DNA of 64,000 nt from Eledone cirrhosa (taxonomy: Eukaryota): the NCBI GenBank assembly GCA_964016885.1, contig OZ024741.1, positions 269,080,001 to 269,144,000 of the forward strand, in the 5' to 3' direction. This document shows, piece by piece, positions 2,851 through 35,781 of the stretch. The translations under genes and the position numbers were made by a program. Each line of letters starts with the position of its first letter. The stretch's first letter is position 1. The notes under the pieces were generated by a model that made no database searches, was not told the DNA's origin, and worked only from the letters and a program-made list of their open reading frames with translations.

Positions 2851-3521
2851 ACGAAACCGTTCTGCACGCACTTGTCCAATGTCCCTGCATTACTGACTTG
2901 TGGAGTTATGTCGAACAGCTACTGTCGCGTGTGGAACGAATCCAGCTATCGGCCGAGTCCATAGTGAAGATCGATCCACCGCCTTCCTTAGGTCAGGAAG
3001 AGCAGGACATTTTCCTCTGTTTGGTGGCAGTTGCGAAAGAGATTATATGGTGGACCAGGTTGAAAGGACTAAAGACAGACACTTTTCTCTTCGGCCAATC
3101 CCTCATCAACTTCTTCAAGTTTCACCTGGAAAGGAAGGTGAGGGCGGAGAGAGAAGTGCCCCCCTCCAGTATTTGCTAAAAGGTGGGTGAATGTGGCGAG
3201 AATGGCTCGTGTGAATGGGCCTACTCTGACCATGCGCCTATAGGCTAGCTAACTTGAGGAGAGGGGTGCTCTCCCTGGGTGCCCTAGAAGCGCAGGGTGG
3301 TTCAGGATTGGTGGGGTACCTGAAGCACCCCAGGGTCGTACACCCCCTATCGGGGAATTTATTTTGTTATATTTATGCATAGATTATTTTATATTTTTAT
3401 ATTTTCATTGTTAAATTAGTCTTGCCATTGTGCACTTTTACTCCACCTTATTGTAAACCCCACTGTCCCTGTCTTTGTATTGTCCCCTACATGTCGGCCC
3501 TGGTGGCTAATAAATGAAATC
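2851..3521 (+). mobile_element. 5'-truncated Tx1-like LINE, family A (copy A1)
   Basis: Near-identical to 8743-9416. Ends GGCTAATAAATGAAATC followed by ATTATT. Confidence 0.92.
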
Positions 3522-3756
3522 ATTATTAATGGCCGCACATGTGTGAAGACAGTACAAATCTGCGGGGGAAAAGGTTCGTAACTTTAAGCTGTTTTAAAGT
3601 GTCTTTTTTTTGTATTTTCTTGTCATTAACGAAACTTAAGGTACACATCTTGACTTAAAGAGAGGGATACCTCTCAATATTCGGGCTTTAAGCCCGAATA
3701 TTCAGATTTATTTTTAAAAACTTCGAAAAAAATCGCTTCCCCACCAAAAGAATATT

Positions 3757-5735
3757 ATGGAAATTTTCGACCTTGAAACGGTCAACAACGTTCAGGTCAA
3801 AAGTTTAAGGGCAGGCACTGCAGATTTCACCACGACTACGACGGCTACAGTCATGCCTGTCATCCACTCTACTGAATGTGAAGGCAAAACTCAAAAGCTA
3901 CCATCACAACCTTCTGTGATAGCAGCAGTATCATCTGAAAACGACATCACCACCACCGCCACAACCACCACCACCACCACTACCACAACAACAACAACAA
4001 CTCAGAGCAATAACGACAATAACACCGACAGCTTCAATGTAAACAAGGATGGCGGTGGCAACAGCAAGAATGACAACAACAACAATAAGAGCATCAAAAA
4101 CACCACATTTGCTGCAGCAGCAGCAAAAACAAAGCGCTTATTGAATATTGATATTGATATTAGCGATGAAGACGAACAGTTGGCCAAAGCGTGGAGGCTA
4201 ATTAAACGGGAGAAGTCCTGGGCAAACCTGACCATCCCGGACGAGGCAATAGCGGCCATGCAAAGGAGGACAGTGTTCTTTCGATGTATTTCGGTGCAGA
4301 CACGAAAAGTGGAACTTGCGAGCCAAGCAGAGGTCGAGGCTGCTTTGGAGTACATCGGAAGTAACATAGAGTACAAAGCAAGAAGCAAACAGTTCGGTAC
4401 CATCTCGGTACTGTACAAAACCGAGGCCTTCGCCATTAAGCACTCGGTGACCCCCTGCATAACGGAACGCATTATCATGCATCCCTCCTATATGGGTAAA
4501 AGGACAGTGAAGGTACGCATTCCCAGCATCCCACCAGGAATGAACATATGGTGGCTACTGGGATACGTAATCGAGGAGGGGACAGACACTACCCTTCTGG
4601 ACATCAAAAGGACAGAGAGAGAGTACTGGTCCGGAATGGATTTGGAGATTCTTCTCCAAATGAAACCGGAGGATATGAATAACATCCCGGATCTTGCCCG
4701 CCTGCAGGACGGGACAACAATCCAACTAATGATTGACGGAAGAAGGCCACGCTGCTTCGTCTGCGGGGAAGCAACGCATCTTCAAGCCTTCTGCTCTCAG
4801 CGCAAAAATGCAGGGGGTCGCAAACCTCCTTTGTTGCCAACGCCAGTGTCAGTACGGAAAGCTGCACCACAACCACCACCAAAAACAAAATCAACAAAAC
4901 ACGGACACCAACATCAAAAGCAGCCGGATCACCACCAACACCAAAACCAATCCAAGGAGAAAACGAGGAAAGCTCTCCCACTCCCCCCCCCCCAATTATA
5001 CACATAGAAAAAACAATAAACGCACACACAGACACAGAGGCACTCACAGACACAGACCCTTTGTCTTCCAGCAGCGAAGATGAAGGAAAATCCCAAAAGT
5101 GCAAAAAAACAGAGAAAACTCACAAAAAAAAGCCCTAACAAAACACAAAAACACACACAACAAAAAATACAGACACCACTAACGCAAACACTTCCCCAAT
5201 AACATCATCACCAACAGCAACATCGACACCACCTCCACAATCCCCGAAATGCAAACAACCTAAACAAACACAAGTACAAATAAACACACAAATACCTGAA
5301 ATTGCAGACACCACACCTACAACAAACATAGACATACCCGAAACAACACCACCAAAACCATCGCCACCACCTTCACCAAAACGAAAACAAATAAAACCAC
5401 ACCAACAAAATGTTAAAAACTTCGTGCTTGTCAGAAGGGCCAATGATAAACTGATGGCCCTCTTAGCGCGATGCGAGGACATTCAAACAGAGGGGGAGAT
5501 TTTTGAAATGAGCACATTTTGCGTGCCAGAAGATTTGCTTCTGGTCCGAATGTCACTCAATTCCTTCAAAGAAATTCGAGAGAGCTTTCCTCAAGACGTG
5601 GGAACCCCGAATGTGAAACCCACATCAAGTCTTTTAAAGGGGTTCCCAAAAGAAACCCCACCAACCATGAAGGTCGAACCACACGACCTTCACAAGACAC
5701 GGGAGGTAAGTAAACCTTCCCTCTCTCTCTCTTAG
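3757..5735 (+). pseudogene. Tx1 copy A ORF1 (gag-like, CCHC knuckle), frameshifted
   Basis: T/N-rich N-terminus, CFVCGEATHLQAFC zinc knuckle, P/T/K-rich C-terminal part. Frame breaks near homopolymers at ~4985-5130. Confidence 0.8.
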
Positions 5736-5744
5736 CTTACCAAT

Positions 5745-8700
5745 ATGGCCATATTAAGAGTAGGAAGTTTAAATGTTCGCGGCCTGGGGTCACCCTGGAA
5801 GCAGGGTCGCCTGCTCAACGACCTCCGGTCGTTGGAAATGGATGTGATTGCCGTAAGCGAGACCAGAATTTCCGACACGCGCGCACTAGCCCCCATTTTC
5901 GACGACTATCAGATCTTCGCATCTGTTAGCAGGCCGGGAATGGGGGCTGGGGTGGCAGTGCTGTTTAGGAAAGGACTGGATCTCGAGGTAAGGTCGATCT
6001 TCCAGGACCCGGACGGTAAGTTGGTGGTCTTGGATGTGAGCAGTAGTGATGGTGGTGCCTTTAGACTGCTGGCCGTCTACGCCCCTACAGGGGCCGGGCG
6101 ACCTGACTTCTTTAGGCGCCTGGAGACCTTTCTGGGTACGTCTCGCCCTTTACTGTTAGCGGGGGACTGGAATGGCATCTTAGACGCACGCTGGGATTGT
6201 GTGGGAGTAGCCGATAGGAGCGGGGGGTGCAAAAGCCTCAAGCACCTACTCAGCCAGTTCCAACTGTTTGACAGGTATCGACTAGATTTCCCCAATGTGC
6301 CAGTATGGACATGGACCAACCGAATGGGGTCATCTAGATCGTATATAGACAGGATCTTCATTAGGAAAATAGATAGAAATAGTGTGGGCTGTCCACTTTT
6401 TAAAACGGTCGCCTATTCAGATCACAAATTTGTGATCTGTACGGTCGACCTAAATAAAACGCGTAGGTTAGGACCGGGTTACTGGAAGCTGAACATGTCA
6501 TTTCCGGCACGTAAGGCTTACAGGGACCGAGTCAACAATTTAGTTAAGCAAAAGTTGACAGGGGGATCATCAACAACAGATGGTGGGGGGCTCTCAAAAG
6601 AGAGATTAGAGTAACTTCGATAGAGTTCAGCAAAGAACTAGCGTTAGAGAAATATAGAAAGGAGGGGGAGGTGGTAGATAAGTTAGACGAGGCTATTTGT
6701 AGTGGCATCGCAACTGACGTGCTAGCGGCGAGAAAGGCATTAGACCATTTCTTCAACGCCAAACACGAAGGTTGCATTGTCAGAGCTAAGGCGCGTGCGC
6801 TGAGAAACGAAGGAACTAAAGCAGTTCGATGGGCCCGCGTGGCGGAGGCGCAGCGTGGTAATAAAACCACAATTCGGTCTTTGGCGGACCGAGACGGACA
6901 CGAGATAAGCGATTCCAAGCGGATGTGTGAGGCCTTTCGCCAGCACTTTGCTCGGTTGTTCAGGGAGAGTGGCGAGTCAGAGAGAGTAGCGGATTTCAGT
7001 CCCTACCTTGACGGCTTGCCGCGCATCTCGACGATCGACGCTGAGCGCTGCGAAAGGCCGATTACTTCAGCCGAAATTCAGTACGCCCTTGTCGGCTGCA
7101 TGAGGCGCAAGTCACCCGGTTTGGATGGCCTGCCCTACGAGCTTTACGTAAATATGCCAGATTTGTTCTCCGAACTCCTCGAAGCACTCTACTGCAACTG
7201 GCAGCAGAATGGGAGTATTCCCAGTTCTGTGAGCAGGGGAGTGGTGACATTGATAAGGAAAGACGAGAACAAGAGGGATACATTAGACAACTTCAGGCCC
7301 ATAACTCTGCTCAACACAGAGTTTAAGATTTTGGCCAAGGTGTTAGCAAAGAGATTGGCGCTTGTCGTCGAGGATTTGGTTGGGGAGGCGCAAACTTGCG
7401 CAATCCCAGCCAGGTCCATACACGACAATCTCCACCTCATGCGATACATCATAGAGAGGGTAGGGTGTAAACCTGGCTTCGGTGGGGCACTGATCAATTT
7501 AGAGTTTGTAATCAAAGCAGCTGGCTTCGGCCCTGTCTTTAGAAGCTGTCTTTAGAAGCTGGATCGTTGCAATACACAGCGGCACAAGCTCGGTGGTCAA
7601 GGTTAATGGCCACCTCTCGGAACCATTTCGGCTCTCCCGATCGGTCCGTCAAGGGTGCCAACTCTCTTCCCTTCTGTACGTATTGACTCTCGAGCTTTTA
7701 CTGCGGAAGCTGGAGCTGTTGCAGGGCATCCCGCTCGAACCGGGGCGTGGAAAGGCGGTGTCGGCTTATGCGGACGACATCACCGTGATGGTGTCGAACA
7801 CCTCAGAAATCGAGGTGGTCGGCACCTTACTGAAGGAATATGAAAGGTTGACAGGAGCCAAACTTAACCCGGAAAAGTTGGTGGGCTTGCCGCTCGGAAC
7901 CTGGAGAGGCAAGCCCATGCCGTCCAACAGCGTCGCGGGGCGCTGGACGGACGGACCTGTAAAGTTGCTCGGGGTTTGGCTCGGACCAGACCTCCAGGTG
8001 GAAAAGAATTGGGACGAGGAAACGAGCAGAGTAGCCAGTCTCACCCAAAAATGGGCTGGGAGGAAGCTATCACTGAAAGGTCGCGCGGAGGTGGCGAATG
8101 CGTACATCGCGTCCGTCATCTACTACCGCCTAACCGTCGTGCCTTGCCCCCGTCCGCGCCTCGTCAAGTTGGAACGGCTCCTCTTCAAATTCTTGTGGAG
8201 GGGACAAGTTCCGTTGGTGAGGCGGTCCATCTGCTGCCAGCACCCTCTACGCGGAGAGCTGGGCATGCCGTGGCTAATGATGCGCAGACATGCGTTGAGG
8301 CTGCGACATCTCCAGATATTCTGACTCAATGGTGAACAGGTGTGGTCGCCGTTTATCAGACGGGCCTTTCCGCAGCTCATTTCTTTGACTGAGCTGCAGT
8401 CCTGGGTCAAGAAGAGACCGAGATTGGGTGACTGGCACCTGGAATGTTGCCAGGCACTCACTGCCCTCTACCAAGCGGGCAATGCGATCAGTGGAACTTC
8501 CACTCTCGAGTTCTATAGAGGATTAGTGGTGGGCAAGTGCAATGACGCACTCGGAGAAGCTTTGGGCCTCGACGAAGTCGAACTGACCAGTCTGTACCGG
8601 AGGACTTTTGAGCCGGGGCCGATGGACAATTTCCAGAAATCCCTCGCTTGGCAGTGCTACCGGGGGGCACTGCCGGTTCGGGATAAACTCTACAGGCACG

Positions 8701-9137
8701 GAAGTGCTGTCAGACGGACCTGCCCAAGATGCGCACAGAACGACGAAACCGTTCTGCACGCACTTGTCCAATGTCCCTGCATTACTGACTTGTGGAGTTA
8801 TGTCGAACAGCTACTGTCGCGTGTGGAACGAATCCGGCTATCGGCCGAGTCCATAGTGAAGATCGATCCACCGCCTTCCTTAGGTCAGGAAGAGCAGGAC
8901 ATTTTCCTCTGTCTGGTGGCAGTTGCGAAAGAGATTATATGGTGGACCAGATTGAAAGGACTAAAGACAGACACTTTTCTCTTCTGCCAATCCCTCATCA
9001 ACTTCTTCAAGTTTCACCTGGAAAGGAAGGTGAGGGTGGAGAGAAAAGTGCTGCCCCCCGGTACATTTTCTAAAAGGTGGGTGAATGTGGAGAGAATGGC
9101 TCGTGTGAATGGGCCTACTCTGACCATGCGCCTATAG
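5745..9137 (+). pseudogene. Tx1 copy A ORF2 (APE endonuclease + RT + Cys-rich C-terminus), frameshifted
   Basis: SLNVRGL, VSET, VYAP, AGDWN, SYIDRIF, SDH (APE); KSPGLDG, FRPITLLN, SVRQGC, AYADD (RT); CPRC...ETVLHALVQC. Confidence 0.93.
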
Positions 9138-9437
9138 GCTGGCTAACTTGAGGAGAGGGGTGCTCTCCCTGGGTGCCCTAGAAGCGCAGGGTGGTTCAGG
9201 ATTGGTGGGGTACCCGAATCACCCCAGGGTCGTCCACCCCTTATCGGGGAATTTATTTTGTTATATTTATGCATAGTTTATTTTATATTTTTATATTTTC
9301 ATTGTTAAATTAGTCTTGCCATTGTGCACTTTTACTCGACCTTATTGTAAACCCCCACTGTCCCTGTCTTTGTATTGTCCCCTACATGTCGGCCTTTGTG
9401 GCTAATAAATGAAATCATTATTATTATTATTGTTGTT

Positions 9438-12400
9438 GGTGAAGCCACGCTTCTTCTCGCCTCCAGTCTTTTTCAACGTTTTACCTCATTTTCAACCGTT
9501 CTAAACATTTTATTCAAGTTTTAAATTTGATAAAAGTTTAGAAGTGACCCACCTAATACAGGGGTTCACTAGTAAATAATACGGCATCCCTTTACGGGGT
9601 GTCGTATTCGTATTTGTGTAAAAATATTTTTTTGAAAAATTTCAACATGGATAACACAAGAAAGAGAGAGAGCGCTGTCAGACAACACAGAGAGAGGGAG
9701 ACTTTATCAGCATGTCAACAAGACAGCGTTCCAGCGGAGGTAAATATAAACGAAAATATTACAAAGGAAAAAAAGATTGTTACAGATTTAAAATTACCAA
9801 ATATTTCTAACACAAACAACACCAACAACATCACCAACAACAACACCAAAAATAACAGCGGTAAAGTCGAGAACGACAATAACAATGACAATAACAACAG
9901 CCACAACAACAATAATAGTAGGAACAGTATCAACAAAAACAACAATAATAACAACAGCCACAATAACAGTAACAGCAGCAACAGTATCAACGAAAACAAC
10001 ACCAACAACTGTTCCAGCGAAAAGAACAACAATGACACCGATACCTGTAATAGCGACCTCAGCACCACCAGTAAGACCAGTAGCGGCAGCAATAGTGGTG
10101 CTGCTGAAAAAGGGACCACTTCTTTTGCAGGTGTCGCCCGAAATATCGAGACAGTGTTAGTCACAGAGGAGGAGATGGCAGTCGCAAGGGCCATGGTGAC
10201 AAGAAGCGCAAATAGAGTTTCCCTGAAACCTCCACCCGATTTTTTCAAGGACCAGCAGCTACGGACGGTGACTTACCGCACCGTAAGCAAAATCTCACAT
10301 CGAGTGGAGAGAGCCACGGAGGCTCAAATCCAAAAGGCCTTGGGGTGCGTCTGGGCACGCAAAACCCACATCACCCGAGGCAGAAAGTACGCCACAGAAG
10401 ACGTACTTTTCGCCACCCCCCAGGAAGCAAAGTCTCACTCTTTGGAAACCCTAAAGAGTGAGGAGTTAGTCTTGGTGCCCTCCTACTGCGGGCAGAAAAT
10501 TGTGAGGGTCAAAGTGACGCAGGTCCCACCCGACGTGCCCATACCTTGGCTGGCCGCGTCTGTCCTTGCTGGAATTGAGAACAGGGCGACCATGCTGCAA
10601 GTAGAACAAATAGGGAGAGAGAACTGGTCAGGTGTAGGCATGCAAATGCTTATACAAACTGACCAGGAATGTATCGAGGCTATCCCCGATATCATAGACA
10701 CGAGGAAGGACTCCAACTCCCTATAAGTGTAGAAGGAAGACGGTCAAAATGTTATCTCTGTGGGTCGAAAGGTCACCTCAGGGCCTTTTGCCCGCAGAAG
10801 ACACCGAAGAGGGCCCCTCTCCTTCCAATACCTGGTCTGCTGCTACCAAGAGCAGGACAGGCAACACACGAAGAAGCCCCTTCCACGGTCAGTAGGAGGG
10901 CAACGTCCGTAGCACCCGTACCAAGGCCACGGATAACTAAAGCAGCATCATCAGTAGCGGCAACACCAATAGCTACATTTGAAATAGCTACACCAGCAAC
11001 AAAATTGCCGAAGAGGGCTCCACTACCACCACCAACAGCCGTGGAGCACATACCCCCCCCCCCCCCCCAGACGCCACAGAATCCGACATGGAGTTTGAGG
11101 CGGGAGTGACGTGGCAAACAGTCTGCCACAAAAAACAAAAAACAAAAAAACCCTTAGATTCACCCTCCAAAAGCGAAGACATACAAAGAGGGGTAAAGGC
11201 AGCAAGGAAACTTGCAGCAACACCACCACAAACACCAACAACGCAAACACAACAAGACACACACACCAAACAGCAACAAGAAGAAAACGGTAACAAAATC
11301 ACCCCTCCCCCAAAAAAGTACACAGCCATAAACATAGCAAAAATAGAACTCATAAAATATATAAAGCAGCACACAGATATCACGAAAAAAAACTACTACA
11401 CCCCACCAACACCAAAAACTCTCCCGACAAGCATAAGCATCATCGAAATCTCAATAGAACAGTACAAACCTTTAAAACAAAAATTCCCCAACGCAGTTGG
11501 AGACTTCAGAGGGACGGTTACCAAGAGGATATACACTGACATCTTCTTGGAAACACCCATGGCCAGCCAAAGGGACGGTTCTACTGTCCCTTCACCACAC
11601 GAACAAGGTAAGTGACCCTTTCTCACTTGCCCCGTTTCTCATCCAACATGGCTGTACTCAGAATAGGCAGTATAAATGCACGTGGCCTGGGGTCATCTTG
11701 GAAGCAGGGCCACCTGCTCAATGACCTTAGGTCACTAAACATAGATGTGGTGGCCATCAGTGAAACCAGAATCTCCCAGGCACGGGCCTTCGCACCGATC
11801 TTCGGCGGCTACGATGTATACGCATCTCCCAGCCGTCCAGGATCGGGGGGAGGGTTTGCCGTCCTTTTTCGGAGAGGCTTGGATCTCGCGATACGGGCCA
11901 TCTTCCTGGACCCAGAAGGTAAGTCGGTGGTGCTGGACGTGACCGGCAGCGAAGGCAATGCTTTCAGGCTAGTAGCCGTCTACGCCCCGACAGGGGCAGG
12001 ACGGCCAGATTTCTTCAGACGTCTAGAGACCTTTCTTGGAACGTCCCGCTCTTTAGTGTTAGTGGGCGACTGGAACGGTATCTTGGATGCACGCTGGGAT
12101 CGTGTGGGGCTAGTGGATAGGGGAGGAGGGTGCAAGAGCCTCACCAACCTGCTCAGACGTTTTGAACTGTCTGACAGGTATCGACTGGATCACCCGAATG
12201 TACCAATGTCGACATGGACAAACCGCATCGGGTCATCCAGATCGTATCTAGATAGGGTATTCTGCAGGGAACTAGATAAGGCTAGTATAAGTTGTCCACA
12301 ATTTAAAATAGTCGACTACACAGACCACAAATTTGTGATCTGTGAGATCGACATAGACAGACTTCATAGACAAGGGCCTGGTTACTGGAAGCTGAACGCG

Positions 12401-15331
12401 TCTTTCCCGGCGCGCAAGGCCTACAGAGACCAGATTAGCGTATTAGTTAAGCGGTCGTCAACAACAGGTGGTGGTTCGCCATGAAAAGGCCAATTAAAGT
12501 AGAGTCGATTAGGTTTAGCAAAGGAGTAGTGATAGAGGAAAATAGAGTAGAGGGAGAGCTAGTCAGAAAGCTAGAAGAGGCGTTTAGGACAGGCATCGCA
12601 ACCGACGTGCTTGCGGCGAGATTGGCACTCGACCAATTCTTCAACGCAAAACACGAAGGCTGCGTTGTCAGAGCTAGAGCGCGTGCTCTGAAACACGAGG
12701 GGACAAAAGCCGTCCAATGGGCCCGGGTGGCAGAGGCGCGACGTGGAAACAAAGCCACAATTCGGTCTTTGCCTGACCAAAACGGGTGCGTGATGCTCGA
12801 ACCCGAGCGGATGTGTGAAGCTTTTCAGCAGCACTTTGCTGAACTGTTCGGGAGCGGCGGCGGCCCGGATCGGGGCATGGACTTCAGTGCATACCTCGAC
12901 GGACTGCCTCGGCTATCGACGACCGCAGCACAGTGTTGCGAAAAGCCAATAACAGCCGGTGAAATACGGGAAGCGATGGCTAACTGCACAAGAGGTAAAT
13001 CGCCAGGTTTAGATGGTCTGCCCTACGAGCTTTATGCATTTATGCCAGACTTGTTCGGTGACCTCTTGGCAGATGTCTACTGCAACTGGCAGCAGAACGG
13101 GAGCATTCCCAGTTTTGTGAGCCGGGGAGCAGTGGCGCTGCTGCCCGAACAAGGGGGATGTTATTGATAATTTCAGGCCCATAACCCTGCTAAACGCAGA
13201 GTTCAAGATTTTGGCCAAGGTGTTAGCAACGTGTTGGCGCTTGTCGTCAAGGGTCTGGTGGGAGAGGCGCAGACATACGCTATTCCGGACAGATCCATAC
13301 ACGACAACCTCCACCTCATGCGATACATCATAGAGAGGGTGGTTAAGGAACCTGGCAAGGGTGGGGCCCTGATCAACTTGGATCAATCCAAAGCATTCGA
13401 TAGGGAAGACCATCGGTACCTGGCGGCGGTCCTCGAGGCAGCCGGTTTCGGGCCCGTTTTCAGGCGTTGGATCGCAGCAATGTACAGCGACATCTGCTCA
13501 GTTGTGAGGGTGAACGGTCACCTGTCGCAGGGTTGTCCCCTCTCGTCCCACTTGTACGTATTGGCTCTCGAGCCGTTACTGCACAAACTGGGGGGCGATG
13601 AGGGGCGTCCCACGCGAATTAGGATGCGGGAAATCCGAGTCGGCTTACGCTGACGACGTCACCGTGGTGGTGTCGAGCACCAGACACGTCCAGATGCTCG
13701 GCACCGCTCGGCACCCGCTCTCAAGGAATACGAAGCGGTGACAGGAGCAAAGATAAACCAGGAAAAGTCGGTGGGCTTGCAGCTAGGCACCTGGAGAGGC
13801 AAGTCCATGCCGTCCGACAGCGTCGTGGGGCGTTGGACGGACGGACCGGTTAAATTGCTCGGGGTCTGGTTCGGACCGGACCCCAAGATGGAGAAAAACT
13901 GGAACGAGGTGACGATCAGGGTGGGCTCCCTCACCCAGAAATGGGCTGAGAGGAAGCTGTCCCTGAAGGCCGGGCGGAAGTGGCGAATGCGTACATCGCA
14001 TCCGTCATCTGCTACCGCCTCACCGTCGTCCCTTGCTCCAGCCCAACTCTCACCAAAATGGAGCGCCTCCTCTTCCGCTTTTTGTGGAAGGGACGCGCTC
14101 CCATGGTCAGACGATCCATCTGCTGTCAACACCCGTTGCGTGGAGGACTGGGCATGCCATGGCTGATGATGCGCAAACATGCGCTGAGGCTGCGACATCT
14201 CTGGTGCTTCCTTGATGGTGAACGGGTGTGGTCGCCGTTCGCCAGGAACATTTTCCCACAGCTCGTCTCCTTGACGGAGCTGCAGTCCTGGGTCAGGAAA
14301 AGACCGAGGGATAGCGCTTGGAAACTGGAATGTCTCCAGGCGCTCACTGCCCTCTCCCAGTTGGGCACCAGTATCGGTGGAACATCCACCTCGGCGTTCT
14401 ATAGAGGACTAGTGGAGGGGAAGAGCGACGACATTCTCGGAGAGATCCTGGGCGTCGAAGAAGATCAGCTGTTTGTTCTCTTCCGGAGAACTTTCAGCCC
14501 GGGGCCTATGGATAACTTCCAAAAATCCCTGGCCTGGCAGTGCTACCGGGGAGCGCTGCCGGTTCGAGATAAGCTCTACAGGCACGGAAGTGCCGTCAGC
14601 TGAGCCTGTCCGAGATGCGCGCATAGCGACGAAACCGTTGTGCACGCACTCGTTCAGTGCCCGAGCATTGCTGACTTGTGGAGCTATGTCGAACAGTTGC
14701 TGTCACGTGTGGGACTGATCCGGTTGTCGACTGAGTCCATTGTGCAGATGGTCTCGCCGTCTTCCTTCGAGGAGGAAGGGCAGGCGGTTTTCATCTGCCT
14801 GGTGGCCATGGCGAAAGAGATTGTGTGGTGGACAAGGTTAAAAGGATTAAAGACAAACACTTTCCTCTTCGGCGAATCCCTAATTAACTTTTTCAAGTTT
14901 CACTTAAAGAGGAAAATCAGGGTGGAGAGGCAAGTGCTGCTTTCTAGAAAGTTTGTTGAAAGGTGGGTGAATGTAGCGAGAATGGTCCGAGTGAATATAC
15001 GTCTGAATATACGTCTGAATATATGTCTGAATATACGTCTGTAGTTTGAGAGATGGAAAAATTGAGAGGGGGCGCTTGCCCTGGTAGTCAGGGTGGCCGT
15101 GGTCTTTTGTGTGGTGTTCGCTACGAGTAACCCTCGGAGGTTTCCCCCCTATTGGGGAATTTTTCATTGTCTCAATTTTCATTTTATTGTTTATATATAT
15201 GTTTTATGTTTTTTTTTTCTTTTCTTATATAAATAATAAAAATATTTACACGCACAAAACCCACATCGTCCCGTCCTGTCCCGTCTGTGATGTTTTTCTT
15301 GATGTCAGCCCTTGTGGCCAATAAAGAAATC
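9438..15331 (+). mobile_element. Full-length Tx1-like LINE, copy B, disrupted
   Basis: Begins with GG after (ATT)n/GTT. ORF1 ~9647-11615 has CYLCGSKGHLRAFC. ORF2 11648-15044 has APE/RT motifs. Ends GGCCAATAAAGAAATC(ATT)3. Confidence 0.92.
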
Positions 15332-15340
15332 ATTATTATT

Positions 15341-15542
15341 GTGGATTGGCAGTATCGGTAGAGGGTCGGACGCCATGCTTTCCAGCATAGTTACGTCCCT
15401 TTACGATCTGAGTTCAAATCCTGCCGAGGTTGACTTTGCCTTTCATCCTTACGGGGTCGATAAAATAAAGTACCAGTAATGCACTGGGTAATAGCTGGCC
15501 TTGTGCCTAAAGTAGAAACAATTATTATTATTATTATTATTA
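15341..15542 (+). mobile_element. tRNA-derived SINE (main family, Meta-domain-like core) with (ATT)n tail
   Basis: A box TGGCAGTATCGG, B box GAGTTCAAATCC, core CTTTGCCTTTCATCCTTACGGGGTCGATAAAAT. Many other copies occur in the window. Confidence 0.9.
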
Positions 15543-18500: not shown

Positions 18501-18960
18501 TGCATAATAGAGATGATTTAAATCAGTAATGTTTAGTTTGTTTGTGATGATAATGTTTTTGAGAATTATGTTAGTCTTGTGTATTATCTTTTGGTTCTGT
18601 TTGGAGTTCTGGATCTTAGGGAGGGTGTCTCGTTGCCCCATGTCAGATTCTTTCATTTTCATCCATTCGATCATAATTTCATCCTTCAAGTTGGCAAGTT
18701 CATTCTCATTCATTTCTTTATCATTTACGATCTCATTATTTTCATTTGGAGTTTCATCCTGAGCATGCACTCCCTCCTCTTTTTCGATCCTTTCTTTAAT
18801 TTGTTCTGTTGCCAGTGATTCCGCCCCAACCCTGGGGTTCGAAGTGTTACAGTTTACCTCGTTTTCACTGACACATGTTTCATTTTCCCTTCGCTGACTT
18901 TGTGCTAATAGCTTGATCTGATCAATTTATTATCAAGCTAATAGCTTGATCTGATCAATT
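15543..18960 (-). mobile_element. R4/Dong-like RLE non-LTR retrotransposon, family 1, 5'-truncated, disrupted
   Basis: KSPGKD, NYRPITCL, EQKGC, GIFLGDSLSPLLF, FYMDDLKL, YKYLG, CRVC...HI, NRPDI...IDMSVP; frame ends GTAHILRKILSI* at ~15687. (ATT)n lies on both sides. Confidence 0.9.
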
Positions 18961-18988: not shown

Positions 18989-19407
18989 CCTTGAATCTCA
19001 GTCATTGATGTTGGTTAACTGGAAAGTCCGTTGGATTGAATATCAAGCCACTACCTGCAGCCTCAGATATTCAGGACGTATCGGAGGGTTCTTGCTGTTC
19101 CAAGCAAGCATGCCTTTTGAAGCGTTCCAAAAAGCGTGAAGGGGCCGATTTTCTTTAACCATCCCTGGAAACTTTTGGAGATAGTCCCCAGTGCGCCTAT
19201 GACAATCGGGATCACTTTGACTTCATGGCAGTTCCAAATCCTTTTCACCTCCCACTTTAGGTCCTGGTATCGGTTAATTTTCTCCCTCTCCTTCTCTTGC
19301 ACTCTCGTGTCGAACGGGCAGGCCACATCCACAATCAGGCACGATCTTTTTTCTTTGTCCACAACCACCAGGTCTTTTTTCTTTGTCCACAACCACCAGG
19401 TCAGGTC

Positions 19408-19408: not shown

Positions 19409-19462
<54 letters not shown>
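19409..19462. repeat. (ATT)n microsatellite between Dong fragment and Tx1 copy C
   Basis: Pure trinucleotide run. Similar runs lie at 9417-9431, 15521-15542, 18958-18988, 30348-30362, 31345-31413, 34905-34922 and 35709-35720. Confidence 0.95.
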
Positions 19463-19465
<3 letters not shown>

Positions 19466-25400: not shown

Positions 25401-25452
25401 CACTGTCCTTAATGTCTACTTTATGTAAACCCTTGTGGTTAATAAAGAAATC
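19463..25452 (+). mobile_element. Full-length Tx1-like LINE, copy C, disrupted
   Basis: ORF1 ~19683-21794 has CFRCGSKTHLRAFC. ORF2 runs from ATG 21830 to ~25200 with APE/RT motifs and stops. Ends GGTTAATAAAGAAATC-ATTATT. Confidence 0.92.
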
Positions 25453-25458
25453 ATTATT

Positions 25459-28400
25459 CTTTGAGTCTCAGTCATTGATGTTAGTTAACTGGAAAGTTTG
25501 TTGAAATGAATATCAAGCCACTACCTGCAGCCTCAGATATACAGGACGTATCGGAGGGTTCTTGCTGTTCCCAGCAAGCATGCCTTTTGAAGCGTTCCAA
25601 AAAGCGTGAAGGGGCCAATTTTCTTTAACCATCCCTGGAAACTTTTTGAGATAGTACCTAGTGCGCCTATGACAATCGGGACCACTTTGACTTCATGGCA
25701 GTTCCAAATCCTTTTTACCGCCCACTTTAAGTCCTGGTATCGGTTAATTTTCTCCCTCTCCTTCTCTTGCACTCTCGTGTCGAATGGGCAGGCCACATCC
25801 ACAATCAGGCACGATCTTTTTTCTTTGTCCACAACCACCAGGTCAGGTCTATTATGTTCCAGTTTCTTTTCCGTCTGTATCCTAAAATCCCACAGCACCT
25901 TCACCTGATCGTTTTCTATCACCGACTCTGGCTTATGTTCATACCACTTCTCAGAATGTGGTAAATTGTTTACTTTGCATATGTGCCAGTGGATCACCTT
26001 GCCCATCACATCATGTCTCCAGCCCTTATAGTGAGTCTGGGCTAGGTGTTTACACTCGGATACAATGTGAGCCACAGTCTCCTCTCTCTCTCTCTCCACA
26101 GATCCTGCACAGTGGGCTAGCCTCCTCCTTGTAAATATGGTGTTTCAACCACTTCGTTTTGAGGGCCTGCTCCTGCGCAGCCATTAACATTCCTTCTGTA
26201 GCCTTTTTAAGGTCTCCTCTTTTCAACCAGTTCCATGTCTGTGGATCTCTGAATTCAGTTTTCTCAAAGAAGGTACTATGAAGGGATTTTTCCTGAAGGC
26301 TGCTCTTTCTCCTTGATGTTATTTCCTCCTTGGACATCCCCTGGTCTATTGTCCCCTCCTTCAGTACAGTTCTGAGCATTGGCTCCTTACTATCAGTCAC
26401 GTATTTGTGTAGGTTGTTTTTCTCCATCTGAACACAGTCCTCTATGCTGATAAGACCTCTTCCACCTTCAGATCTCCTTAAGTAGAGTCTATCGACATCA
26501 CTCCTCTTGTGGAACATGTTGTAGATAGTCAATAGCTTCCTAGTCTTCCTATCCATTTCTTTTTGTTCAGCAACATTCCATCTCAGAATTCCCGCACTGT
26601 ACCTAATAATAGACACAGCTCGGGAATTTACTGCACTTATGGCATTCCTACTGTTCAGATGTGACTTTAATACGCTCCTTACTCTCCGAATGTATTCAGT
26701 TCTTATCAATTCCTTTATTTTTTTGTTCTTGATGTCATCAGCCTCCAGAACACCCAAATACTTGTATCCTTCTTCAGAGTCAATTTCCTTTATCATCTCA
26801 CCTGTTGGTACCTGGATTCCGTTACTTCTGCTCAATTTACCCCTCTTCATCACAAGGACTCCACACTTACTAATACCAAATTGCATACATATATCATTGC
26901 TGAAAATACGGACAGTGTCAACAAGCACATCCAACTCCTTCTCACTCTTCCCGAAAAGCTTAAGATCGTCCATGAAGAGGAGGTGATTGATGGTAAGCCC
27001 TCCCTTTCCCAACCCGTATCCTGCTATCACTTTTCGCAGTACACTGGTCAGGGGCATCAGGGCAAGGACAAACAACAGAGGGGACAGACTATCTCCCTGG
27101 AAGATACCTCTCTTGATCTTCACGCTTTCCAAGGATTCTCCAGTTGATGTTAGCTCTGTTTGCCAGGACTTCATACTTTTGCCCAACAACTGTCTGATGT
27201 TATATGCCACCTTGAAGATCTCCAGGCTTTTGGTGATCCAAGAATGAGGCACCATGTCAAATGCCTTTTTGTAGTCTGTCCATCCCATGGCAAGACCAGT
27301 GTGTCTCCTCTTGCAATTCCTCATTACCATCTTATCAATAAGTAACTGGTCCTTTGTACCACGTGACTTCTTTCGGCATCCTTTCTGTTCGTCCGGTAAC
27401 AATTTGTTTGTGTGGAGGTGATGGTAGATTTCCTCAGACATAATGCTTGTCAACAGTTTCCACATTACGGACAGACATGTGTTAGGTCTATAGTTGGTAA
27501 CATAATTACCCTTGATTCGGTCTTTCATTATCAGAACTGTGGTACCTTTTGTCAACCACTCTGGTACATCACCTGACATCAAGCAGTCATTGAACATGGT
27601 TGTCAGTTTCGGGTGGAGGGATGTTATATTTTCAATCCAATACCCCTGCACACCATCTGTGCCTGGCGTTCCAGTTGGTTAGTTTTTTGGCCTGCCCCTT
27701 AAGAGTTTCAACTGTGATAATCAAATCAGTTTGTTGGTGTGCCTGTTCACTAATCTCCTTCTGTACTGTCTCAATCCACACAGCTTGGTCATTATGTTTA
27801 ACATCCTGCTCCCATATTCCTCTCCAGAATGTTTTAGTTTGTTCCGCCTCAGGGATCAAGTCGTTGCCTCTTTCTTTCCCTTCAAGCTGTCCAAACAGCA
27901 TCTTCTGGTTGTTGTCGAACATGCGGTTCTGTCTATACTGACTGACTCTGTTCTCGTATCGCCTGATTTTTGCACTCTTTACTACAATGCGTTGCTTCAG
28001 TTCCTCTATGATAATATTTAGCTTTTTCCTCCTAGTTTTTGTACTTTATTTCCAGTCTATTTTTAGTGTCTATGTTTTTTAGTGTCCCATTCAGTAGGGA
28101 CTCAAGCTTTCCAATGTCATTTCTCATTTCCCTGGTTTGACCACTCAGTCGTTTCTTCCACCAAGGCTCTGATCTTTCTTGTTTGTTGTTTCCTCTCGCT
28201 TTTATACCAAGTAGTTTCCTCACCGTATTTGCTGTTGCTTTGAGGATATTGTTGCACTGGTGAAGGCTCCTCGCCTCAAGGTATGGGATGACTTTGTTTA
28301 CCTTAGCTGTTGTTTCTTTTAACTTTTTCCTGTCTACAAATCTTAGGTTCATAGGTTTCCCACTATCATTGTTCAATCCATCTACCACTATGTTTAGGAT

Positions 28401-29075
28401 ATCAACCAAATCTTGTCCTAGCCCGTCAGCATTCATCTCCTCAGTGGCCGTATCTCTGTTCCAGGTATTATTTATCTCAGCATTCAGATCATTGTCTGCT
28501 TCGGGTGGTTCCTCGGTTTTCTCGACCTCCTCACCTTCATTTCCCACTGGCTCGTTTGCCTGGTATACTCCACTCTCCATCTCCAAGCTAATCTCTCTGC
28601 TCAGTTCCTCCAGTTCCAGCTCGCTTATCCACCCATTAGTTCTTATTACCCGAGCCTGCCCGGCCAATTTTTGTTCATCTAATTTAAATAGACCAATCTC
28701 GTTCCAGATGTTATGCATCCGTTTCCTATAGCCTTTCTCCTTGGGGTTACTCTTCAGGTAACATTGCATAACAGTTCTATTCAATTCTTTCGTCCAGTTG
28801 GTTCTGGTCCCTTTCCTTCTTCTTCTTCCTCAGACACCAGCAGTATTTGGTTGACAGCCAGGTCCCTGCTGCTGAGCCAGGGAGCACCTGTTGGGTGAGA
28901 GTCTGTCACATGACATTCTAGTCTCCATTTCACCGTTATTCGAACTGTTTAGGTTCGACATTTAAACACTCTTATCGAGGATTGGCGAATGTATGGTTAC
29001 ATAACCACCGGTGATTTCATCACCTCCGGTAATTTCGTCACTCCCGGTGATTTTTGTGTGGCATTATCACGCTGT
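25459..29075 (-). mobile_element. R4/Dong-like RLE non-LTR retrotransposon, family 2, near full-length, frameshifted
   Basis: N-terminus VMQCYLKSNPKEKGYRKRMHNIW; EPWWKKRL; GIFQGDSLSPLLF, LFMDDLKL, CRIC, NRPDLVV...DVACP. ORF ~28961 to 25533. Confidence 0.9.
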
Positions 29076-30362
29076 AGACGAACATAAATAAACAAACAAA
29101 CAAACAGGCAAAAAAAAACCAAAAAATGAATAAGCATAAGTTTCATTGTAATGTAATGTTTGAATGTCTGACTTAGTTTTTCCCTTCCCTTCTCTGTCCG
29201 TCTGTTTGTTTTTCTCTTCATTTTTCTTTTCTTTACGTTTTTCGTTGTTGCTGTGCTGCTATGATTTTGATTTTTGGCTTTTTGATTTTGACCGGGTCAT
29301 CAATTCAGTCTATTTATATATTTTGATGCCTTCCTCTTTTAGTGGGGGCACTACGATGTAGCAGGGGCTAGTGGGAGAGAATAGCGGTGGCAGCGATAAT
29401 GAGGCAGTGGCGGTGGTGGTGGTGGTGGTGGTGGTGGCGGTGCTGTGCTAGTAGTACCTAGCAGGAGGCAGTGGGAGAGAATAGCGGCGGCAGCGATAAT
29501 GAGGCAGTGGCGGTGGTGATGTGATCGTAGTACTGTAGCGATGGTGTTGAAGTTGGAGTAGAAATAGCGGCCGAGGCAACTTGACCAGAGTTTTTAGCGT
29601 GGTAGTGGCGGCGGTGTTGGTGGTGAAATTATCTTTAGCTATTTAGTCATTTTGCCATTTTTCTCCTTTTCGACTCTAACATTCCTGATCCAAAATTAAA
29701 TATTAATATTGTTTATTAACATTGTCTAGTGATACCGCCACCTTCCCCTTTCGTAAGTTAACAGAAGGTAATGGGGAAATAGCGGTGGCAGCAATGAAGG
29801 AGTGGCGGCGGCGGCGATGGGATAGTGGTAGCAGTGATGGATGGGTGGTGGCGGCGGTGACTGTAGTGATGGCGTTGTCGTTACTGAGTTTTGTTGAATA
29901 GACTGTAGTTTTGTTTGATCGGTGAATCTATGCGGTTAGTCGCGTATATGTGTTGACATATTCCTTAATATTGGAATTAAACATTTTGTGAAAACTTGAG
30001 ACAATAGTAATAGTAATTATAATTATTATGCTGGGATTGACGGTGGTGGTGGTGAAATTGCCGTTATCTGGCTGTTGTATTTAGTGTACACAGAGGAGTG
30101 ATGGGGTAGGTGGTGTATCTAGTTTGTGGTGTTGGTGAAATTGCTGTCATTTGGCTGTTCTATATAGTGTAGACAGAGGGGGTTTTCTTCCATTTATAAC
30201 CATATTCTTTTTTTGAATGTAAAATGTATATTACAAAATTGAATATTTGAGCGATATAACAATATATTATGGATCCGAATTTTCCTGAGACTTGAGTCTG
30301 GTGCTTATGCATCATTTGTACTAAGAATTGTTATTTCACAATAAATCATTATTATTATTATT

Positions 30363-31344
30363 GGCACCTGGAATGTTGCCATGCACTCACTACCCTCTAC
30401 CAAGCGGGCAATGCGATCAGTGGAACTTCCACTCTCGAGTTCTATAGAGGATTAGTGGTGGGCAAGTGCGATGACGCACTCGGAGAAGCTTTGGGCCTCG
30501 ACGAAGTCGAACTGACCAGTCTGTACCGGAGGACTTTTGAGCCGGGGACGAGGACAATTTTCAGAAATCCCTCGCTTGGCAGTGCTACCGGGGGGCACTC
30601 CCGGTTCGGGATAAACTCTACAGGCACGGAAGTGCTGTCAGACGGACCTGCCCAAGATGCGCACAGAACGACGAAACCGTTCTGCACGCACTTGTCCAAT
30701 GTCCCTGCATTACTGACTTGTGGAGTTATGTCGAACAGCTACTGTCGCGTGTGGAACGAATCCGGCTATCGGCCGAGTCCATAGTGAAGATCGATCCACC
30801 GCCTTCCTTAGGTCAGGAAGAGCAGGAAACTTTCCTCTGTCTGGTGGCAGTTGCGAAAGAGATTATATGGTGGACCAGGTTGAAAGGACTAAAGACAGAC
30901 ACTTTTCTCTTCGGCCAATCCCTCATCAACTTCTTCAAGTTTCACCTGGAAAGGAAGGTGAGGGTGGAGAGAAAAGTGCTGCCCCCCAGTACATTTGCTA
31001 AAAGGTGGGTGAATGTGGCGAGAATGGCTCGTGTGAATGGGCCTACTCTGACCATGCGCCTATAGGCTAGCTAACTTGAGGAGAGGGGTGCTCTCCCTGG
31101 GTGCCCTAGAAGCGCAGGGTGGTTCAGGATTGGTGGGGTACCTGAAGCACCCCAGGGTCGTACACCCCCTATCGGGGAATTTATTTTGTTATATTTATGC
31201 ATAGTTTATTTTATATTTTTATATTTTCATTGTTAAATTAGTCTTGCCATTGTGCACTTTTACTCCACCTTATTGTAAACCCCACTGTCCCTGTCTTTGT
31301 ATTGTCCCCCTACATGTCGGCACTGGTGGCTAATAAATGAAATC
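30363..31344 (+). mobile_element. 5'-truncated Tx1-like LINE, family A (copy A2)
   Basis: Near-identical to 8434-9416. Preceded by (ATT)5 and followed by a long (ATC/ATT)n run. Confidence 0.93.
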
Positions 31345-31348
31345 ATCA

Positions 31349-31413
<65 letters not shown>

Positions 31414-31415
<2 letters not shown>

Positions 31416-31546
31416 CCCACTTATTCCTGAGAGGGTCGGGGGAACAGAATCCTCGAACACTCATTCCATTGGGTCCTGTCAGGAGTAACCCTCTCTAATT
31501 GATCCGGCTGGATCCCCAAGCGAGACCAGTCAACCTCATGGATGTT
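31414..31546 (-). mobile_element. 3' tip of RTE-clade LINE
   Basis: Homologous to 45780-45917 and 58337-58480 (WSRLGIQPDQLE...RPSQE*, TAAGTGGGTGA). Confidence 0.8.
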
Positions 31547-34500
31547 AATCCCCTTGTTCGGATCCTTTCTCAGCAGCTCCACAGCTCCTCGGCTCACAAA
31601 GCTGGGAATTCTCCCGTTCTGTTGCCAGTTGCAGTAGACGTCCGCCAAGAGGGATCCGAACAAGTCTGACATTTGTACGTAAAGTTCGTCGGGCAGACCA
31701 TCCAAACCAGGTGATTTACCCCTTGTGCAGCCAGTCATTGCCTCCCGTACAAAGCGTTTGTTATCGGCTTTTCGCAACACTCCGCCTCAGTGCCCCCGAA
31801 CAGCTGAGTGAAGTGTCGCTGAAAAGCTTCTCACATTTGCCCGGCATCGAGTAGCATGCGCCCGTCGTGGTCCACCAAAGACCGGATCGTGGCTTTGTTG
31901 CCACGACGCGCCTCCGCCACTCGGGCCCATTGAACGGCTTTCGTCCCCTCGTGTCTGAGAGCAAGCACCCTAGCTCTGACAACGCAGCCTTCGTGCTTTG
32001 CATTGAAGAATTGGTCAAGGACCAATTTCGCCGCAAGTACGTCTGTCGCGGTGCCTTTACTAAGCGCCTCGTCTAATTTTCTAACTAGTTCTCTCTCTGC
32101 CCTATTTTTCTCTATTGCTAAAGCCTTACTAAACCTAATGGACCCTATTCTAATCGCTCTTTTCAGAGCAAACCACCATTTGTTGTTGGCGATGGCCCTC
32201 GTCAACGCCCGCTTAACTAGTTCGCTAATCCGGTCTCTATAGGCCTTGCGCGCTGTTAATGACGCGTTTAGCTTCCAGTAGCCGTCTCCCTGTCTATGAA
32301 GCCTATCTAAGTCAAAGTCACAGATCACGAATTTGTGGTCCGTGTAATCGACTATTTTGAAATGTGGACAGCCTATGCTAGACCTATCTATTTCCCTACA
32401 AAATACCCTATCTAGATATGATCTGGATGACCCGATACGGTTTGTCCATGTCCACATTGGCACATTCGGGAAATCCAGACGGTACCTGTCAGACAGTTGA
32501 AACCGTCTGAGCAGGTTTTCGAGGCTTTTACACCCTCCTCTCCTATCCGCTAATCCCAGACAGTCCCAGCGTGCATCTAAGATCCCGTTCCAGTCGCCCA
32601 CTAACACTAAAGAGCGGGATGTTCCAAGAAAGGTCTCCAGACGCCGGAAGAAATCAGGCCGCCCTGCTCCTGTCGGGGCATAGACGGTCACTAGCCTGAA
32701 AGCTTGCCCGTCTCCGCTGGTCACGTCCAGCTACACCAACTTACCTTCTGGGTCCAGGAAGATGGCCCGTATGGCGAGATCCGAACCTCTCCGAAAAAGC
32801 ACAGCAACTCCCCCCCACCCCCTCCGATCCAGGACGGCTGGGAGATGCGTACACATCGTAGCCGCCGAAGATCGGTGCGAAGGCTCGTGTTTCGGAGATT
32901 CTGGTCTCGCTGATGGCCACCACATCTATGTTTAGTGACCTGAGGTCGTTGAGCAGGTGGCCCTGCTTCCATGACGCGCATTTATGCTGCCTATTCTGAG
33001 TGAGGTCATGTTGAAACGGAGTGGAAAAAGAAAGGAAAGACCACTTACCTCACTTCTCGTAGAGGAAGGATAGTTTGTCCATCCTTTTCACTGCTTGTGG
33101 CCTCCTCCGGAAGGATGTCCTTATAAATCCTCCTGGAGAGTGTTTGTCGGAAGTCTCCGATAACCTTGGAGAATTTTTGTTTTAGTGTTGTGTACGTTTT
33201 CTGTGTGATGCGAGTGATTTGTATGTGTGGAGGTGGTGTGAACTTTTGGGTTGTTGTGTAGTCTTTTTCTGTGATGCTGGTGTTGTGTTGGATGTAGTGT
33301 AATAATTGGTTGTTGTTCAAATTTAATGCTGTGTAGTGTGTATCGTTTTTGTTGTTTTGTTTTGTTTGCGTTTGTTGTGGGTTTGTTTCTGTTACGCTTT
33401 TTGGTGATTTTTGTGGTGTTGGTGATGGTGGTTGTGGTGTTAATGATGGTGATGGTGTTGGTGTTTGTGGTGATGGGGCTGGTGATGCTGGTGTGGGTGG
33501 TTCCATAGCTGTCTTGAATTGTTTGTTTGTTTGCTTATTTGTTTCTCCCTGCATTTTGGTTTTGGAGGGTGGAGGAAGAGGATATTTTCTTTTTGGGGTT
33601 CTTTTTTTCTATTTCTTTTTTCCTGATATCATTTCCCACTCCTCCTCATCGTCATAATCTGTCTCCATTTGGGATAGGTCGGGGAGTGGAAAATCCTCCA
33701 TGGCGTTGGTTTGGGTTGTGGCGTGGTGGATGGTGGAGGCGCTGGTGCTAATTCTGGCGCGGTGGGTGGTGGGGGTGTTGTTGCTGCTACAGTTGTTGCT
33801 GCCATTTCTGCTGCTGGTAGTTTTGAAGGTTGAGTCACTGGAGTGGGTAGGGGAGGTGGCCTCAACTTTTTAGCCTGAGGGCTGAAAGCCTTTAGGTGGG
33901 TTCCTTCTCCACAAATGACACACCTAGGCCTTCTACCCTAACGATTACGGTGAGGTGGCTGCCGTCATTGAGGTCTATCACCTCTGGAATTTCCTCAATG
34001 TTCTTTTGGTCCGCTTGGATCAGGAGCTCCATCCCAGATCCGGACCAGTTCTCCTGCTTTACTTTTGTTACCTCAATTATTTTCGTGTTGGCCTCGATGC
34101 CGGCGAGGAAGGCAGCCATTAGCCAGGGAATTTCGATGGCCGGCGGAACCTGGGTCACCCTGATCTTCACGAGTCTCTGACCCTGTACCCATCTTTTTTT
34201 ACTATTCTCTTGGCTTCATTTAATTCATCCTGGCTTACCTCGATTGTTTCGCTTTTCTTGGCTGCTTTGGCAAACGACACATTTTGTTTTGCGCTGGTGT
34301 TGATGTTGTTGTTGTTATTCTCATTGTTGTTGTTGTTACTGTTGTTGTTATTGTTATTTTTGTTATTGTTATTTTTAGTTTCAGTTGTGGTGGAGGTCGT
34401 GGTGGTGATGTCAGTGGTGTTCGGCGTGGAAGAGTCGATTCTAGGTGAATCCATTTCGATGTCACGAGATAACATTTTTTTCTGTTGTCGCTGTGGTGGT

Positions 34501-34904
34501 GGTGGGGGTGGCGGCTTTAACACCTGCAGTTATTGGTAATGGCGGGAAATCCATGTCTGTATGCGGCAAATTTAAATAATTGAGACTGCTATTAATTATA
34601 TTTTCAGTGTTGGCAACCGTGGCAAGCTTTACAATGGTGGTGATGGTGGGGGGGGGGGGTCTGTTTAAAAACAGGAGATTTGTCGTCCATGTTTTTTTTT
34701 CAAAGAAATATTTTGTTTGATAAATAAAAGTTTAAATTTTGGGCTCAAGGCCCCAATATTATTTAGTGTCCTTTTCAGAAAGCAATATATGTGAACTTAT
34801 AAACACTTAACGACAAAAATGTTCCATAACAGGCAATTTGAAACAACTGAAAACAACAAACCTTTGCGGAGCTCACGACAATACGATTTCCTACGTAGGT
34901 CGCC
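31547..34904 (-). mobile_element. Tx1-like LINE copy D (5' UTR, ORF1, APE and start of RT), 3' half missing
   Basis: Starts with GG after (ATT)n on the minus strand. ORF1 runs from ATG 34690 with CVICGEGTHLKAF. ORF2 runs from ATG 33009 and is nearly identical to copy C. Confidence 0.9.
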
Positions 34905-34988
34905 AATAATAATAATAATAATTGTTTCTACTTTTGGCACAAGGCCAGTAATTACCCAGTACATTACTGGTACTTTATTTTATCGACC
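34905..34988 (-). mobile_element. 3' part of main SINE with ATT tail
   Basis: Reverse complement reads GGTCGATAAAATAAAGTACCAG...GGCCTTGTGCCAAAAGTAGAAACA(ATT)n. Confidence 0.85.
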
Positions 34989-35044
34989 TCGTTTGTTGTT
35001 TTCAGTTATAGAAAATGTTTGTTGTTAAGTGTTTATAAGTTCAC

Positions 35045-35708
35045 ATAATGTTTCTTTATTGACCACAAGGGCTAACATGAAGAAAAACATTAGAGACGGC
35101 ACAGAACAGTACAGACGATACAAAGTGGGTTTTGGTCGTGTAAACAGGTTATAACAAAATGCTGGTCGTTGAAGAAATCGGGTGGAGGTTAGAGGGAAAC
35201 TCTATTGTCGTTTCTCGACACCATGGCTCTTGCAACTGCCATCTCCTCCTCCGTGACTAGCACTGTCTCTATATTTCGGGCCACACCTGCGAAAGAAGTG
35301 GCCCCTTTTTCAGCGGCACCATTATTGCTGCCGCTACTGCTGCTACAGGCGCTACAGGTGTTGTTGTTGGTGCTGTTGCTGTTGCTACTGCTACAAACGG
35401 TGTTGTTGGTGTTGTTGCTGTTATTACTGTTGTAGGTGGTTGTGTTTTTGGTGCCACCGTTGTTGTTGTTTTCGGTGCAATTTGTATTGTTGCTGTTGGT
35501 GTCGTTGTTTATTTTCTTGTTAGTGGTGTTAATATCGTTGTTGAATGTGTTGTCATTTTTTTCTGTTGTCTGTATTTTGGTTGACGCTGTTATACACAGG
35601 GCAAAGTCTTCACACAACAAGAAATATTTAACAACTAATAATTTTAACAGGCAAATAAAGCGACTTACTGGGAGCGAGCAAAACGCCGATTAGACGTCCG
35701 ATTAGACC
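35045..35708 (-). mobile_element. Internally deleted Tx1 mini-element (copy E): 5' end + ORF1 N-terminus joined to 3' terminus
   Basis: GAAEKGATSFAGVARNIETVLVTEEEMAVARAM matches copy B ORF1. 35045-35145 matches the copy B 3' end (15246-15336). Confidence 0.82.
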
Positions 35709-35781
35709 AATAATAATAATGTGGATGATAATAATAAATAGGGAATAAAGAATCAGTATTGCATCATATACATATTTAATT

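Follow-up and report, generated by a model that had tools for sequence, protein, structure and literature searches.

Tx1-like and R4/Dong-like retrotransposons in opposite orientations in (ATT)n repeats of Eledone cirrhosa

TRAS1 and SART1 are retrotransposons of the R1 clade. They insert in opposite directions in the (TTAGG)n repeats of Bombyx mori (PMC7265360). Both use an APE and are confined to telomeres, whereas here two enzyme classes are found at thousands of interstitial sites. Convergence of an APE and an RLE element on one target is described for Keno (Tx1, APE) and Utopia (RLE), which share a target in the U2 snRNA gene (PMC4640811). These two occupy one site of a low-copy gene with an identical 3' flank, while the elements analyzed here take opposite orientations in a repeat that is dispersed and persists on both flanks. 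Microsatellite targets are known within Tx1: Kibi uses (TC)n and Koshi (TTC)n (PMC3812793), and crocodilian Tx1 elements use (TTCC/TTTC)n (PMC4494074). Our Tx1-like elements resemble them in the L1-group ORF2 with APE and RT, the ORF1 with a knuckle and the microsatellite target, but differ from Kibi and Koshi in that the target is (ATT)n; a CTT run after the element was seen in only two copies. On the RLE side, Dong of the R4 clade (B. mori; DongAg and DongBg) targets TAA repeats (PMC3812793, which groups Dong with APE elements, in our judgement wrongly), and a primer in PMC3774820 places TAA upstream of the 5' end of B. mori Dong on the sense strand. Our Dong-like elements agree with it in the single ORF, the RT, the CCHC knuckle, the PD..D motifs, the TAA target and the same sense upstream. 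They depart from it in that two families with 35% identical proteins have a head of about 700 bases in common and share their target with Tx1 families. No HDV-like ribozyme was detected in them (see below).

For Octopus vulgaris, Dong-R4 and L1-Tx1 are listed among the recently active families, in passages that do not mention targets (PMC13282606), and passages of PMC3747384, PMC5786205 and PMC4824008 contain nothing on ATT targeting. No ATT-targeting Tx1 element was found in the literature searched; one may be listed in Repbase or in the supplements of PMC4494074. Here we describe a Tx1-like lineage (APE) and two R4/Dong-like families (RLE) that sit in (ATT)n in opposite orientations and stack genome-wide, probably because each nicks a different strand and primes there. 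Each component has a precedent, and the combination is assembled from known behaviors. Within the literature searched, (ATT)n would be added to the known Tx1 targets. The system would further offer a natural pair of unrelated endonucleases, predicted to act on opposite strands of one three-base repeat and available in young, near-intact copies, as well as a testable case of a microsatellite class that is born and grown by retrotransposition.

Element families and anatomy of the array

The window, which is the whole stretch of 64,000 nucleotides that was analyzed, belongs to an assembly of 3.0 Gb in 1796 contigs, and the array occupies its positions 2851-35720. The anatomy in Table 1 was obtained by comparing the window with itself, by Pfam and by direct reading of the sequence.

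Table 1. Elements of the window from left to right.
Position	Strand	Feature	Remarks
1..2852	+	Gypsy-type LTR element, pol (RNase H, integrase)	Pfam; 3' LTR cut after ~135 bases
2851..3520	+	Tx1-A 3' fragment, short ATT tail	96-98% to the window's other two Tx1-A ends
3531..9416	+	Tx1-A, full length; ORF1 with CCHC knuckle, ORF2 APE-RT-zinc knuckle	Stops and frameshifts
9417..9437	+	(ATT)5 and GTT units	Tx1-A/Tx1-B junction
9438..15331	+	Tx1-B, full length, broken	ORF2 region 74% to Tx1-A
15341..15520	+	SINE, ~180 bases, tRNA-like head judged by eye	Then (ATT)7 at 15521-15542
15543..18960	-	Dong-1 (R4/Dong-like, RT and RLE), 5'-truncated	TAA tail
18989..19407	-	Dong-2 3' fragment, truncated at internal ATAATA	(ATT)18 at 19408-19463
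19469..25452	+	Tx1-C, full length, broken	
25458..30347	-	Dong-2 with most of the long 5' region, broken ORF	35% protein identity to Dong-1
30363..31341	+	Tx1-A copy, 5'-truncated	Flanked by (ATT)5 at 30348 and (ATT)21 at 31351-31413
31414..31550	-	Old LINE 3' end, presumably RTE-like (AAG tail)	Bystander or seed; joined to Tx1-D
31551..34904	-	Tx1-D; D-type 5' UTR and ORF1 on C-type ORF2, 3' half missing	(ATT)6 upstream, on own sense strand
34923..34992	-	SINE 3' half	
34991..35044	+	Inverted 54-base piece, D-like 5' UTR	Between half SINE and Tx1-E end; against local polarity; unexplained
35045..35708	-	Tx1-E, internal deletion (5' start fused to a Tx1 3' end)	(ATT)4 upstream at 35709-35720

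The Tx1-like elements have two ORFs, of which ORF2 combines APE, RT and a C-terminal zinc knuckle (Pfam Exo_endo_phos, RVT_1 and zf-RVT); in ORF1 of Tx1-A, a CX2CX4HX4C motif was read from the sequence near 4753. Stops or frameshifts break all long copies of the window. Natural open frames exist in other copies and encode APE-RT-zinc knuckle for Tx1-A, C and D (the open Tx1-A ORF2 is P0001) and, for Dong, a single ORF (P0003) with RT, CCHC, RHD, PD..D and K..Y..L and no APE. The C-terminal motifs of Dong-1 were also read directly in the window. The Tx1-like ORF2 is nearer to L1 than to R2 (phmmer E of 5e-57 to L1 ORF2 and 2e-18 to R2), and the Dong-like protein is nearer to R2 than to L1. The two groups lie far apart in an RT tree built from all 29 rows. 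In this tree, Tx1-A, C and D fall into a 93/93 group with a TX1 protein of Stylophora that was named automatically and is not curated. The Dong-like RTs form a 100/99 group with unnamed insect, lizard, urchin and shrimp RTs, separate from a NeSL-like protein, in a tree that holds no Dong or R4 reference rows. The search for an HDV-like ribozyme at the Dong 5' end gave no Rfam hit, and our own descriptor, run without a positive control, found none. ARAGORN and Rfam gave no hit for the SINE, and a metagenome scan with protein P0005 found no relative.

The families also exhibit mosaic features. Dong-1 and Dong-2 share the 5' head mentioned above (80% overall and near-identical at its start; loci L305 and L310 versus L134; window 29640-30347) despite their distant proteins, and a head swap is the likely origin. 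The window segment 29000-30347 is the long 5' region of Dong-2 and is contiguous with Dong-2 in other copies. A stretch of 48 bases from the SINE 3' end is also found within the 5' region of Dong-1. The Tx1-D family recurs (L415, L417, L424 and L428; 4/20 C-type 3' ends) and combines a 5' UTR and an ORF1 of its own with a C-type ORF2, an apparent ORF1 exchange just before ORF2. Several Dong-2 copies (18989-19407 and L106-L109) share one truncation point, an internal ATAATA some 400 bases short of the 3' end, which reflects either a hot spot of microhomology or a non-autonomous short subfamily. In full-length Dong heads (L126-L153), the AAT run is often followed by one to four G, and AAG runs in some of them resemble slippage products of the AAGAAG in the head itself.

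A sequence-only reading of this DNA had taken almost every junction of the array to be an (ATT)n run. We found at least two units in 11 of the 16 junctions and at least three in 9, which falls short of nearly all; one junction has less than two units and four have none, namely LTR/Tx1-A at 2851, RTE/Tx1-D at 31542-31550, SINE-half/inverted piece at ~34990 and the internal deletion of Tx1-E. The first of these is a 2-nt microhomology join. The Gypsy LTR runs on beyond the window's cut in 11/11 other copies, and the Gypsy element is a left neighbor outside the ATT system. Upstream of the window (L121-L123), a satellite of at least 20 kb with a 10-base unit and a 200-N gap abuts the 5'-broken Gypsy element. 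The polarity described earlier was recovered without exception: all Tx1-like ends that touch a run read ATT on their own sense strand, including the minus-strand copies D and E, and 3/3 Dong-like copies read AAT. The idea that the array is built on one microsatellite had to be given up. The plus strand reads ATT from 3521 to 31413 and AAT at 34905 and 35709, and since runs of both polarities are not derivable from one seed, the array consists of two stacks of opposite polarity. Perfect runs of at least 12 bp number 8 in 2851-35720 versus 1 (at 39299) in the remaining 28 kb.

The polarity flips at 31542-31550, where Tx1-D ORF2 and the RTE-like end share 9 bases. This suggests a deletion, likely one at microhomology. 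No contig or read of the short-read sample bridges this join, and such contigs are too short for the array. Contigs from this one sample, which is possibly the source sample, match 31416-31521 and 35656-35768 (a 113-base contig across the right-hand Tx1-E junction) without difference, and the window contains no N. Two other histories were rejected. The whole left stack is not nested inside Tx1-D, as the 40 kb upstream hold satellite and Gypsy and no Tx1-D remainder. A local tandem duplication producing the three Tx1-A ends is unsupported, for these are 96.4-97.9% identical to each other versus 97-98% to copies elsewhere, the latter picked for likeness to one copy.

Flanks of copies genome-wide

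For the flank analysis, we took the 30 best genomic matches for each of nine element ends and dropped the window's own copy from each, which gives a sample of the copies closest to the window elements and not a random draw. A 5' junction was scored when at least three perfect units lay within 10 nt. Full-length copies have ATT in 25/29 (Tx1-A) and 29/29 (Tx1-C) of their 5' flanks, above the 20% of flanks of one type that PMC4494074 gives as criterion for target specificity. Dong heads follow AAT in 26/27 cases (two copies without head were left out), with AAG as the sole miss, and Dong 3' ends carry TAA on the sense strand in 29/29 and 25/29 copies. Tx1-B, D and E all follow ATT, as seen in a biased set of neighbors in loci already sampled. 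Not a single 5' junction shows the wrong polarity, against a background of 0.16% per orientation (113,200 positions). The opposite-polarity use of one repeat by APE- and RLE-type elements, first proposed from the window, is thus visible genome-wide in the flank counts. Absent 5' enrichment or random orientation had been named as observations against it; neither was found, and the enrichment is strong.

Since the repeat is found at the 3' end of every family, ATT could be a mere tail that accumulated passively, or unrelated copies could have been joined at microsatellites by mis-assembly, a concern to which the unbridged RTE/Tx1-D join adds. Truncated copies speak against this, because their 5' ends cannot encode the run, which must then be target and not tail. 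ATT is present at the 5' junction of 7/11 truncated Tx1-A copies (2 internal deletions set aside), and AAT at 10/11 for Dong-1 (2 set aside) and 9/16 for Dong-2 (1 set aside and 1 left out for its closeness to the locus edge). Truncated Tx1-C has ATT in only 1/6 (3 set aside); its five misses are two microhomology joins into antisense Dong, one junction at a SINE-like end and two unexplained cases. No perfect run is found at the other 4/11 truncated Tx1-A and 7/16 truncated Dong-2 junctions, and a further Tx1-C copy (L431) joins the interior of Dong-2 in discordant orientation. In the two copies with CTT runs (L294 and L433), a single ATT or AAT unit follows the element before the CTT run begins, showing that a long tail is not always element-coded. 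The tail and mis-assembly reading is further opposed by the window's lack of N, by the exact match of the right-hand junction in the short-read sample, which may be the source sample, and by the recurrence of each junction type with different partners on many contigs. Together with the strict orientation in stacks (102 versus 5, see below), this leaves it very improbable.

Three other elements served as controls. The RTE-like family has AAG tails and shows ATT or AAT at the 3' end in 0/29 copies, which rules it out as a third ATT-targeting class. A LINE which we take to be CR1-like, from motifs found in its sequence, ends in (ATT)n, and its 5' junctions are not in ATT. The SINEs had been described as ending in ATT. 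The ATT end is indeed present, but usually with one or two units, and at least three units were found in only 7/29 other copies. On the 5' side, a run is present in 4/29, and the SINE is thereby ruled out as a microsatellite specialist. Its duplications of at least 9 nt (18/29 copies) begin with ATT/TTA in 16 of 18 cases. We regard the SINE instead as a seed, inserting at a single ATTA. SINE and Tx1 share polarity, with the SINE duplications starting at ATTA, and the likeness of the SINE tail to the Tx1 tails was reached by 17 (Tx1-A), 48 (B), 81 (C) and 91 (E) of 2000 shuffles; Dong-1 also gave 90.

These controls bear on an annealing-driven alternative, in which the endonucleases would be loose AT-rich nickases, or other breaks would be used, and successful insertion would depend on pairing between the primer and the RNA tail, AUU in Tx1 and UAA in Dong. 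Polarity and stacking would then be products of the tails, with no true convergence of endonuclease specificity. The start sites of the SINE duplications mirror such a process at small scale, and RNA-target pairing has been proposed for SART1 and R1Bm (PMC7265360). However, the CR1-like LINE has its ATT tail and yet its 5' junctions lie elsewhere, and the SINE's 4/29 compares with 54/58 for full-length Tx1. Thus, as the RTE-like, CR1-like and SINE data show, a tail alone does not yield the Tx1/Dong pattern with its near-complete use of long runs. We regard annealing as the sole determinant as unlikely and strand-specific nicking by the two endonucleases as the likely account.

Stacks and long ATT runs

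Another Tx1 or Dong element lies within 120 nt of 107 of the 201 sampled Tx1/Dong ends, a lower bound since the element library was restricted to the window families. When same-class neighbors are expected to be parallel and other-class neighbors antiparallel, 102 of these are concordant and 5 discordant, in line with the stacking proposed earlier. A Tx1/Dong neighbor was found for 2/29 SINE and 1/29 RTE controls.

The genome contains 24,535 ATT runs of at least 8 units that start after a non-T base. Among the first 100 long runs on contig C1, 35/99 gaps measure at most 12 kb versus 4 expected if uniform, and the two runs lie on the same strand in 30/35 pairs with such gaps versus 31/52 pairs with gaps above 50 kb. 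The array had also been suggested as a source of the ATT microsatellites of this genome. This finds support in that 17 of the first 30 long runs abut Tx1 or Dong, all with the predicted polarity; these are confined to 6 of ~17 clusters, and isolated runs turn out just as frequently to be CR1-like LINE or SINE tails. Eight of the 30 are CR1-like LINE tails, and 28/30 have some retroelement end on the left, where the pattern used to find the runs favors 3' ends. In 40 evenly spaced 10-kb stretches (400 kb), 6 of the 11 runs of at least 15 bp abut Tx1/Dong, four of them in one stack; for runs of at least 24 bp, AAT is the most numerous class (9), with 7 for ATC. We conclude that Tx1 and Dong probably multiply runs within stacks and that other elements seed the isolated ones. 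Tx1-like sequence makes up ~4% of the 400-kb sample, so that such targeting would leave its mark on an appreciable part of the genome and keep insertions out of unique DNA.

Two more recurrent sequences start right after ATT runs (3' flanks of L004 and L222, and of L010, L026, L027, L297 and L302) and match no window element. They are probably further families of the same system.

Proposed insertion mechanism and neighboring features

Flanks on both sides, polarity, stacking and domain content were observed directly, and the strand assignment is derived from standard target-primed reverse transcription. Because the primer strand is complementary to the element, Tx1, with ATT as sense, would nick the AAT strand, where its RNA end (...AUCAUU) could pair with the primer; Dong, with AAT as sense, would nick the ATT strand. 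Within a few bases of the run, Tx1 3' ends carry a preceding signal that resembles AATAAA. None of the 58 sampled ends of Tx1-A and Tx1-C shows poly(A), consistent with priming through pairing of the RNA with the target. Judging from few cases, a Tx1 insertion may duplicate about 15-20 bases, turn one run into two usable runs and so keep the stack extending. Duplications could be read for two Tx1 copies (L242, 17-21 nt; L021, 15-17 nt); they are unreadable in nearly all other pairs, which are pure repeat, and none is clearly resolved for Dong. One Tx1-A copy has inserted into the ATT patch that lies inside the CR1-like LINE; the repeat flanking it adds up to ~37 nt over both sides, versus roughly 19-28 nt at empty paralogs. 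The earlier claim that each insertion leaves or expands an ATT run agrees with these two duplications and this one filled-versus-empty comparison, a thin basis that also applies to one run becoming two per Tx1 insertion.

Seeds would come from elements that do not depend on runs, namely the CR1-like LINE with its ATT tail and the SINE entering at a single ATTA. The window would then represent two stacks of opposite polarity, joined by the likely microhomology deletion. One may go further and speculate about a closed cycle, in which the CR1-like LINE and a Tx1-driven SINE scatter ATT seeds, the ATT-specific Tx1 and Dong elements multiply them from opposite strands, and retrotransposition accounts for most of the long runs, of which there are tens of thousands. 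We hold this extended picture only tentatively and give it somewhat less than even credence; if true, long ATT runs would be self-renewing, safe landing pads.

The remainder of the window contains further features. An older Tx1 3' fragment lies outside the stack at 46534-47260 (+), with a short ATT tail adjoining a SINE. A mariner-like transposon with inverted ends and HTH domains is present at 37950-38850. Two long GC-rich open frames of 484 and 383 codons at 52347-55131 (+) have no Pfam match. Finally, an ORF of 347 codons at 59394-60437 (+) encodes a C2H2 zinc-finger array and is followed by a 41-base minisatellite at 60848-62137.
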